Positions 56,190 to 58,055 of a DNA stretch of 64,000 nt are shown one piece after another. Every line of letters begins with the position of its first letter. The first letter of the stretch is position 1. The position numbers were made by a program, and so were the translations under genes. A model generated the notes under the pieces. It ran no database searches and had not been told where the DNA came from. It worked only from the letters and a program-made list of their open reading frames with translations. The stretch lies in NCBI RefSeq assembly GCF_056746865.1, contig NZ_CM163382.1; one strand, 5' to 3'.

Positions 56190-56216
56190 TTATCGGATGA
56201 TTACATTCTCCAGCAT
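56190..56216 (-). CDS. toiL: Leader peptide ToiL upstream of topAI
   Basis: Minus-strand ATG CTG GAG AAT GTA ATC ATC CGA TAA encodes MLENVIIR, matching the known 8-aa regulatory upstream ORF. Confidence 0.5.
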   Translation of the reverse strand: MLENVIIR

Positions 56217-57038
56217 CAAAGCCTCGGGTTGAGTTGAAAGGTATTTACGGAGCGAATATTAACACGTAGTTATAGGAGGGATATGTTTCAGTAGAAAAAG
56301 TGTGATGTACTTTGGAAATTGAATGCCAACCCATTTACTGGAAAAGGCAGATGACACTGACGAATGCATGTTGAAGTACGCCTGAAATGGCCTCATCGGC
56401 TTTTCCCTTCGGGAGATTATTCTCCTTTTGTTAAATCCAGAACATAAATATGCTCACCCATCTTCGATGCTTGAAAAATTGAAGCCAATCCTGATAAGTA
56501 ATTTTTTTGAAAGGGTATTTTCCGGATTCACACCGGCTTTGATGAGTGAAAAACCGTTCTCTTTTATTCAGTCAATCGTGGCGGTAATTGCTTCAATTGC
56601 ATATCCCTGGCGAGCATAAGCGGGACTGATGGTATAGCCGAGCCAAAACACATCGCATTGCTGACGTAAATAGATATCACCAATCAAAACCTGCGTCATT
56701 TGTTGACAATGGCCAATTGAATATCGCGAGCAAGTGTAAGAACTCCCAGCAAGACCCTGTAAATAATTCTGTGTAACTGCCCACGATTAAAGGTGGCCGC
56801 TCAGGCGGCCACCGTATTCGATAATAAATGGGTCTGGAAAAAGTGCAGCATCTGGCAGCGTAATGCAGGTAGCCCAGTTCAACTCTCACTACCAGTATGA
56901 TCCCAAGTTCGAGCGCGGAATGTATCTGTATGAGCATCGTCGCTGTTTCAATAACATCATCGACTACTGTAACTCACTTTGCTATCACGGTAAGTTGCAG
57001 CCTAAAAGAGGGATGGAAAAAGGACGATTTTCCCCGCA

Positions 57039-58055
57039 ATGGGATATTTACATATTGATGGTAGAGGCATGAAGCCAAATGGAGGGAGCCGTCATAACCC
57101 TCTTGAAGCTGAAACAATAGCAGCATGGCTGGTGGCACATAAGGATGATATAGAGCGCCATTACGGGGAACCACTGTACAAAGTTGTTGGTGTTGTGACG
57201 CCATTTTCGGCGCAGGTTAATGCTATCAAAATGTCATTGCGTAAGCTGGAAATTAATGGCAAAGACGAGCAGGGTTTACTGACAGTGGGGACTGTGCACT
57301 CCTTGCAGGGGGCGGAAAGGGCGATTGTTCTCTTTTCTCCTGTCTACTCAAAACATGAAGATGGCAGGTTTCTTGATAGCAACAGCACTATCCTCAATGT
57401 TGCTGTCTCACGCGCTAAAGATAGTTTTCTGGTATTTGGCGATATGGACCTTATCGAGATGCAGCCCGCATTTTCGCCGCGAGGGTTATTGGCAAAATAT
57501 CTCTTTTCTTCAGATAATAATGCGTTGCAATTTGAGTTTCAGAAACGACAGGATTTAATTTCCGCACATACACAAATTTCAACGCTGCATGGTGTGGAGC
57601 AGCATGATGAATTTTTGAACAAGACTCTTGCCGGAGCTCAAAAGAAAATAACGATTATTTCCCCTTGGTTATCCTGGCAAAAAGTGGAGCAAACGGGATT
57701 TCTGGCATCAATGGCTTTGGCCCGTTCCCGGGGCATTGATATTACCGTGGTGACGGATAAAAACTGCAATATAGCGCATGTCGATGATGATAAGCGTCAG
57801 GAGAAACAACATCTGCTGAATGATGCTGTTGAAAAGCTCAATAAGATGGGTATCGCTACGAAATTGGTTAATCGTGTTCACAGCAAAATTGTGATTGAGG
57901 ATGAAGAACTGCTGTGTGTCGGATCTTTTAACTGGTTCAGTGCTACACGGGAAGATAAGTATCAACGATACGATACGTCTTTGGTGTACCGTGGTGAAGG
58001 CGTAAAAAATGAAATAAAGGCAATATATGGTAGTCTGGATCAACGTCAGCTTTAA
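57039..58055 (+). pseudogene. yjhR: yjhR-like remnant: helicase C-terminal region fused to PLD-like (HKD) nuclease domain, 5'-truncated and frameshifted
   Basis: 338-aa ORF with helicase motifs ([20 protein letters not shown]) and HKD motif [18 protein letters not shown]; helicase-like sequence continues upstream in another frame (56863..57072). Confidence 0.6.

Follow-up and report, generated by a model that had tools for sequence, protein, structure and literature searches.

toiL is an 8-codon open reading frame upstream of topAI in E. coli K-12. It encodes the peptide MLENVIIR, of which the first 7 residues are conserved, and it lies in a 171-nt upstream region whose pyrimidine-rich 5' end is the published rut (Baniulyte & Wade, bioRxiv 10.1101/682021 / PMC12121999). 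The regulatory mechanism described there combines ribosome stalling in toiL, an RNA hairpin and Rho. Induction of topAI by ribosome-targeting antibiotics and Rho-dependent termination within topAI were shown for the K-12 sequence, to which the sequence analyzed here is identical, and SHAPE data on the leader were reported in the same work (PMC12121999). TopAI is described in the literature as a toxin that inhibits topoisomerase I, and YjhQ as the antitoxin of TopAI. We group Salmonella Mia-127 with the K-12 toiL leader as the closest known system.

The erm and cat leader peptides, which act by translation attenuation, are more distant relatives in mechanism, a comparison drawn by the authors of the toiL work themselves. 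They are likewise short upstream open reading frames in which a drug-stalled ribosome remodels a hairpin that hides a ribosome-binding site. The erm and cat leaders respond to one antibiotic class and control resistance genes. toiL responds to five classes or more, controls a toxin-antitoxin operon, and has Rho termination as an additional layer of control.

Type II Mokosh is a defense system made of a single gene, mkoC, whose product carries a Upf1-like COG1112 helicase and a C-terminal phospholipase D (PLD) domain in one polypeptide (Millman et al. 2022). Mutations in the ATP-binding site and in the PLD active site each abolish Mokosh defense; the systems tested against phage in that study were other Mokosh systems. 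Cury et al. (bioRxiv 10.1101/2022.12.12.520048) used "Mokosh from E. coli K12 (yjhR protein)" as a structural exemplar of a fused MkoA-MkoB. That is the same gene as the one considered here, with the same assignment to a fused MkoA-MkoB architecture.

We analyzed a window of 64 kb (the whole stretch of DNA examined) that contains both toiL and yjhR. In our reading, positions 56190-58055 of the window hold two unrelated neighbors, a presumably working cis-regulatory toiL leader and a dead type II Mokosh gene, yjhR. We put the probability of this reading at roughly 92%. The location is near the distal end of a leuX-associated genomic island of a phylogroup-A-like E. coli. Many K-12 derivatives are 100% identical to the window over 55800-58173. 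The ST167-like strain MS6198 matches the window at 100% identity in three blocks, and 36371-64000 are 100% identical to that strain. Compared with a K-12-like chromosome, the segment 54400-58173 has a single difference, at base 56809, inside a fragment of an IS256-family element. The host is nonetheless not K-12, as the window has this match to MS6198 and an extra IS5 downstream of yjhR.

We found that the toiL leader is present without change. The minus strand from 56216 to 56190 reads ATGCTGGAGAATGTAATCATCCGATAA, which translates directly to MLENVIIR followed by a stop codon. A sequence-only reading of this DNA had reported an exact copy of this leader upstream of topAI, and the report was correct. 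MLENVIIR plus stop occurs only once in the six frames of the 64-kb window, and the number expected by chance, from codon-degeneracy arithmetic, is ~1e-7 per window. The distance from the toiL ATG to the topAI ATG (56216 - 56077 = 139 nt) equals the published toiL spacing. The start context of toiL is GAGGCTTTG-ATG-CTG, and the leader reads GAGGCTTTGATGCTG, with the published features of toiL. The leader is 100% identical to that of K-12 derivatives, including ET12567. The peptide, the 139-nt spacing, the flanking TTG/CTG, the C-rich 5' end and the predicted hairpin between toiL and the ribosome-binding site are all the same as in K-12, and we found no difference anywhere in the leader.

The 5' upstream region of topAI occupies 56078-56248 (minus strand, 171 nt), with the transcription start site placed from the published length. 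The sequence downstream of this presumed mRNA 5' end (56248) is CCTTTCAACTCAACCC. The leader contains the pyrimidine-rich 5' end, a Shine-Dalgarno sequence for toiL (GAGG), toiL itself, and a predicted long hairpin that would sequester the topAI ribosome-binding site. RNA from 56248 to 56048 has a minimum free energy of -59.3 kcal/mol (z = -3.64, 200 shuffles). In both the minimum free energy and the centroid folds, codons 1-4 of toiL are predicted to pair with the stretch of topAI from the Shine-Dalgarno sequence to the AUG. This predicted pairing corresponds to the repressive hairpin of the published model (Baniulyte & Wade). A scan of 54000-60000 against Rfam (E <= 1) gave no match, either to the topAI leader or elsewhere in this segment.

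The peptide and the predicted pairing are also kept in a second copy of the module. A paralog with 82% nucleotide identity adjoins the lsr operon of strain GPEC996. It encodes MLENVIIR, and its lone change within toiL is synonymous (CGA to AGA). The helix is kept despite three one-sided changes (U-A to U-G, G-U to G-C and G-C to G-U).

Immediately upstream of the presumed transcription start is a candidate core promoter for topAI (56249-56263, minus strand). It contains a putative extended -10 element, TGTTAATAT, with the -10 hexamer at 56261-56256, positioned by the published transcription start site. A strict two-hexamer scan for promoters and terminators missed this promoter and gave no more hits than in shuffled sequences. 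Because the strict scan missed it, the -35 element is probably weak.

The published mechanism can be laid onto this sequence as follows. The mRNA of topAI-yjhQ-yjhP would start ~171 nt upstream of topAI. In unstressed cells, the toiL coding sequence would pair with the Shine-Dalgarno and start region of topAI, leaving topAI untranslated, and Rho would load at the C-rich 5' end and terminate transcription inside topAI. If tetracycline, macrolides or other ribosome-targeting antibiotics made ribosomes stall in toiL, the hairpin would stay open. topAI would then be translated and Rho termination relieved. From the literature, and on the basis of identity to the tested K-12 leader, we expect toiL to be antibiotic-responsive here as well. 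Published work already covers toiL and its mechanism as well as the TopAI-YjhQ pair.

We found that the operon controlled by this leader is intact. topAI (yjhX; 55820-56077, minus strand) encodes 85 aa that match Pfam PF09857 (YjhX_toxin) from 1 to 85 of 85 positions (E = 2.5e-37) and NCBIfam PRK13687, and the gene is annotated as topAI in genomes that are 100% identical. After a gap of 11 nt comes yjhQ (55263-55808, minus strand), encoding a 181-aa GNAT acetyltransferase (Pfam Acetyltransf_1/7). The third gene, yjhP (54461-55207, minus strand), encodes a 248-aa SAM-dependent methyltransferase (Pfam Methyltransf_31/25/11 and annotation). In MS6198, which is 100% identical, the first two proteins are annotated as TopAI WP_001054376.1 and YjhQ WP_001309181.1, the latter with the same 181-aa length. 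All three genes are uninterrupted and essentially identical to those of K-12, and the GNAT domain of YjhQ and the methyltransferase domain of YjhP are as expected, at reference lengths. The locus thus has the layout of a TopAI-YjhQ type II toxin-antitoxin pair, a YjhX_toxin protein followed by a GNAT gene in one operon with both genes intact. The proposal that the toxin-antitoxin locus is intact holds, and at the level of sequence this is the case for the whole of toiL-topAI-yjhQP. A sequence search of solved structures found none matching TopAI. YjhP also matched PADLOC "mad2" (E = 5e-17). That match covers only a generic methyltransferase domain, and we did not count it toward a defense role. 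The three genes lie outside 56190-58055, which covers toiL, the spacer and yjhR.

The second neighbor, yjhR, is a relic whose ancestor we were able to identify. In a protein search with its 338-aa open reading frame, the best 120 matches were all fragments, none longer than 588 aa, and the full-length gene was not among them. An intact allele emerged when 5426 complete E. coli genomes were searched at the DNA level. E. coli 2013C-4282 has an intact gene annotated as "helicase YjhR" (3516 nt, 1171 aa) in the same slot relative to nanS-nanM-nanC-fim. The intact gene spans 2911294-2914809 of NZ_CP027579.1. Its product matches the PADLOC MkoC profile end to end (positions 1-1135 of 1136, 1464 bits) and contains AAA_11, AAA_12 and PLDc_2 domains. 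The 5' part of the gene is present in 13 of the 5426 complete genomes. Intact alleles are found in 13 complete E. coli genomes, in the slot between leuX and nanS, and are 95-98% identical to the remnant. In strain R32_14_1F, 300 bp separate the tRNA-Leu gene leuX from the start of the intact gene downstream, and no island intervenes. In strain N1420, which has a divergent allele, the gene is followed by intact genes for a phosphorothioate (PT)-dependent HNH endonuclease and an HNH endonuclease. NZ_CP176489.1 carries a divergent allele.

Judged by profile match and alignment, yjhR is a descendant of a single-gene type II Mokosh system (MkoC). The ancestral protein would have had an N-terminal region, a Upf1-like SF1 helicase and a C-terminal PLD nuclease, and its gene would have had the position immediately downstream of leuX that is seen in a few strains. 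The only solved structures that we could reach by sequence from the intact allele were those of Upf1-like SF1B helicases (DNA2, IGHMBP2/SMUBP-2 and Sen1-type) and of Nuc/Zucchini PLD nucleases. These matches were weak (E about 1e-4) and confined to motif regions. The Nuc nuclease has a single HKD motif, as does the remnant. The same search found no solved Mokosh structure.

The copy in the window is only the 3' end of this gene. The yjhR pseudogene (56829-58055, plus strand) is the last 1227 nt, or 35%, of the 3516-nt gene (gene nt 2289-3516, aa 764-1171). Homology to the intact gene starts abruptly at 56829 (gene nt 2289, aa 764) and continues at 98.1% identity to the stop codon. Gene nt 1-2288 are absent, and Walker A (aa 294-301) and Walker B (aa 695-701) are encoded in this missing part. 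A tblastn search of the 64-kb window with the full-length protein found nothing of aa 1-758 anywhere, and hence no full-length, in-frame helicase gene, the one finding named in advance as incompatible with decay.

What remains is also frameshifted. In the alignment, ancestral GGG has become GG at 57022-57023 (plus strand), a 1-nt deletion that splits the remnant into open reading frames of 69 aa (56863-57072, plus strand) and 338 aa (57039-58055, plus strand). The earlier suggestion that the 5' part was frameshifted or absent therefore needs amending, as both lesions are present rather than one or the other: 65% of the gene is missing, and the part that remains is shifted. The decay itself, as originally proposed, is borne out by the truncation and the deletion. 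The proposed alignment to a full-length relative, now carried out with the 3516-nt allele, reconstructs the ancestor and places the break at gene nt 2289. RefSeq annotates yjhR as a pseudogene, "frameshifted; incomplete; missing N-terminus".

The 338-aa open reading frame matches Pfam AAA_12, the C-terminal half of an SF1 helicase (profile 81-194 of 195), followed by PLDc_2/PLDc. It retains helicase motifs V (57291-57317) and VI (57396-57419). It also retains a single HKD motif at 57879-57902, and the longer pattern HxKx4Dx6GSxN is intact (HSKIVIED...GSFNW at 57879-57935; Pfam PLDc, E = 7.4e-7). Against PADLOC MkoC, it aligns to positions 812-1135 of 1136 (463.7 bits, E = 3.8e-139), and the 69-aa frame aligns to positions 752-809 of 1136 in a different frame. 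The window copy therefore covers MkoC only from 752 to 1135 of 1136, the last third of the profile, and does so in two frames. These results agree with the sequence-only reading that yjhR encodes the C-terminal part of a superfamily-1 helicase joined to a PLD/HKD nuclease, and narrow its "defense-type architecture" specifically to type II Mokosh MkoC. In contrast to MkoC, the window copy lacks aa 1-763, and with them the Walker A and B motifs of the ATP-binding site, and is frameshifted; the PLD active site is kept. Since Walker A and B are gone and ATP-binding-site mutants lose defense, the remnant is presumably non-functional as a Mokosh system.

Both the status of yjhR as a frameshifted, incomplete pseudogene (RefSeq) and its affinity to Mokosh (Cury et al.) are already known. 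The present analysis adds that YjhR of K-12 corresponds to no more than the final third of the real fusion. It also defines the breakpoints exactly, describes the IS256 junction and gives frequencies in the population. As a discovery this is of little importance; the by-products are useful. One is a caution. The protein of K-12 and of the window, used as an exemplar by Cury et al., consists of PLD and no more than the RecA2-like half of the helicase, and the true fusion is the 1171-aa allele. "E. coli K-12 YjhR" is without ATPase and is an unsuitable stand-in for intact type II Mokosh in structural or functional comparison. A second is a source of reagents, as the intact alleles from 13 genomes would be the obvious choice for tests of this Mokosh subtype in its own host. 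A third is the precise reconstruction of the decay, in which the gene, broken at nt 2289, was joined to an IS256-family end and a single G was deleted later.

The two neighbors had been described as divergent. topAI and yjhR do point apart, but they share no control region. Between the topAI promoter and the yjhR break lie ~580 bp of unrelated debris, consisting of a dead GNAT gene and the end of an IS256-family element. The GNAT (Acetyltransf_3) gene remnant (56454-56752, minus strand) was identified by Pfam and by alignment to strain EcPF20. It is 5'-truncated, with the first ~50 profile positions lost. The EcPF20 form (99 aa) matches Acetyltransf_3 from 52 to 138 of 138. Relative to EcPF20, the window copy has lost 1 nt at 56699/56700 and gained a stop codon at 56568 (TGG to TGA), leaving a 43-aa open reading frame (56568-56699) that covers profile positions 65-105.

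The IS256-family (ISEc39-like) terminal fragment is 76 bp long (56753-56828). It is 87-90% identical to the terminal ~80 bp of annotated elements of this family, and it also matches a solo copy downstream of djlA (87-90%). It represents one end only of an element that is roughly 1.3 kb when annotated in full. Its outer terminus (GACCCTGTAAA...) faces left, toward the GNAT remnant, and its broken inner side is fused to yjhR at 56829.

These findings are most consistent with the following history. mkoC would originally have been part of a small defense cluster between leuX and nanS, and islands would have integrated at leuX without harming it. One ancestral deletion associated with the IS256-family element would then have removed the first 2288 nt of mkoC and the 5' end of the GNAT gene. 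Later, in the K-12-type lineage, a 1-nt deletion would have shifted the frame of yjhR. That the IS inserted first and the deletion followed is something we infer from a single junction sequence. The truncated form is found in about 1700 complete E. coli genomes (1707 carriers), or about 31%. Among the truncated alleles listed, the break at nt 2289 recurs, and the K-12-type arrangement is seen in at least 1472 genomes. Together these observations point to a single event. The single-G deletion has an exact match in 921 of the 1707 carriers, and GGG is retained in the truncated alleles of strains AVS0285 and EcPF20. Other truncated alleles have further lesions, ISEc52 at about nt 2414-2417 or ISEc23 at nt 3020.

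It might also be that the site-specific integration of a KpLE2-like island cut yjhR directly, and not a secondary IS-associated deletion. This would suit the position of the remnant on the island's distal edge and that of the intact gene right beside leuX, the tRNA gene at which the island integrates. However, 2013C-4282 has a different island upstream of the gene and yjhR is still intact, indicating that integration at leuX spares it. In addition, the junction partner at 56829 is the interior of an IS256-family fragment rather than a tRNA-derived att repeat. There is no leuX-like sequence in the window. It contains no tRNA, and a search for the leuX 3' end as an att site at the break, allowing up to 3 mismatches, gave no match. 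We consider a direct cut by the island very unlikely, and favor a deletion associated with the IS256-family element.

The remnant might have been kept as a functional, stand-alone protein, either as the 338-aa open reading frame or as an unshifted 397-aa one. One possible role is that of a PLD nuclease of the Nuc/Zucchini kind carrying a RecA2-like appendage. Another would be to pair with incoming Mokosh proteins as a decoy or dominant-negative partner. Single-HKD PLD nucleases such as Nuc and Zucchini are homodimers and are active without a helicase. The frame is open with its HxKx4Dx6GSxN motif intact, and the truncated allele is common, as given above. The 338-aa frame is found in more than 1000 sequenced genomes, and protein clusters contain 1335 members (338 aa) and 695 members (397 aa). 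With divergence below 2%, however, an open frame is expected even without selection. About half of the carriers are frameshifted, and others have ISEc52 or ISEc23 inside the remnant. A promoter scan of the plus-strand 5' flank of the remnant found no promoter-like site upstream of either open reading frame, and RefSeq calls the gene a pseudogene.

The pattern of substitution bears on the same question. dN/dS is 0.10-0.16 between intact alleles, and 0.43 in a pairwise comparison of the window copy with the nearest intact allele. We polarized the substitutions using the divergent N1420 allele as outgroup. In addition to the frameshift, the window lineage has acquired 6 non-synonymous changes (G808D, Y852H, T898M, S913L, S950T and A1136T) and 1 synonymous change. 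Counts of 6 to 1 fit drift rather than constraint, although they are very small and not significantly different from neutrality or mild constraint. On balance, we regard a retained function as very improbable, and the remnant is better viewed as a segment that is without ATPase or evident promoter and that would be drifting.

Two bolder notions, for which we see very little likelihood, draw on no more than co-location and the intact HKD motif. In the first, the RecA2-PLD open reading frame, fixed in about a third of E. coli, would not be inert and could, at low expression, be a stand-alone nuclease or a modulator of Mokosh-type systems. In the second, toiL-topAI, with dead defense genes around it, could itself be an abortive-infection switch triggered by translation stress during takeover of the ribosome by phage.

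That the ancestor of yjhR belonged to another family of helicase-nuclease defense proteins (a DISARM DrmC-type PLD, a PLuB/ProA-type helicase or a type I MkoA+MkoB pair) is effectively refuted by the profile scores, as the remnant's weak matches to MkoA (E = 2e-18), MkoB (1e-14), PDC-S37, DrmC (3.5e-5), PLuB_AAA and ProA score far below its match to MkoC and the end-to-end MkoC match of the intact allele, cover single domains only, and are accompanied by NCBIfam matches far under their cut-offs, and as the intact gene is one open reading frame without a kinase domain, unlike type I MkoA.

Downstream of yjhR, the extra IS5 (58174-59368) is followed by a fragment of a phosphorothioate-dependent restriction endonuclease gene (59491-59737) and then by nanS, nanM and nanC. 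toiL-topAI sits amid a graveyard of defense genes, comprising MkoC, a phosphorothioate-dependent HNH endonuclease and an HNH nuclease.

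The leuX-nanS slot, the chromosomal site of intact mkoC alleles, probably held a multi-gene defence cluster in the past. The window contains a remnant of approximately 250 bp (59491-59737, minus strand) of a phosphorothioate-dependent restriction endonuclease of the SBD-HNH type. In E. coli N1420, which has an intact mkoC, the corresponding stretch (locus L006, 12827-14486) contains an intact gene for a 290-aa phosphorothioate-dependent endonuclease and a gene for a 216-aa HNH endonuclease, flanked by mkoC and nanS. Together, the remnant and the gene order of N1420 indicate such a former cluster. 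The window also carries a 335-aa open reading frame with a SASA (sialate O-acetylesterase, nanS) domain (59837-60844, minus strand). At the matching place in the identical sequence of the ST167-like strain MS6198, the RefSeq annotation shows just a nanS pseudogene that is incomplete at its C-terminus. Two segments of the window, 18805-22128 and 33734-36370, are missing from MS6198, which is elsewhere 100% identical. These segments are presumably mobile-element insertions.

Insertion-sequence DNA lies on both sides of yjhR. A complete IS5 of 1195 bp (58174-59368), flanked by a CTAA target duplication, begins 118 nt beyond the stop codon of yjhR. A search of 5426 complete E. coli genomes gave 84 with this insertion (e.g., MS6198, ECONIH1 and 118UI); it was absent from all K-12-type genomes examined. 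On the other side, an IS256-family element is represented by a solo end (56753-56828). A second solo end (60 bp, 90% identical; L005, 2001-2060) is located directly 3' of the djlA stop codon in many E. coli genomes.

A GNAT (Acetyltransf_3) pseudogene (56454-56752, minus strand) is truncated at its 5' end where it meets the IS256-family fragment. In the window it has also lost one nucleotide at 56699/56700 and has TGA in place of TGG at 56568. The corresponding 99-aa reading frame in EcPF20, a strain with truncated yjhR, is still open.

We compared yjhQ in the window (55263-55808) with that in two other E. coli loci (L009, 2432-2979; L002, 7460-8007). A 2-nt indel approximately 35 nt ahead of the stop codon separates the K-12-type allele from that of EcPF20, and the last ~10 residues of YjhQ differ through this indel. 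The AVS0285 allele has the same length as that of EcPF20 (548 nt) and is flagged as frameshifted by RefSeq.

E. coli GPEC996 has a second, paralogous toiL-topAI module (locus L010, 3007-3450; 82% nucleotide identity) adjoining lsrG/lsrF, in which topAI starts with GTG. The next gene after the module encodes a methyltransferase and is interrupted by IS100; the annotation shows no GNAT antitoxin gene separating it from topAI.
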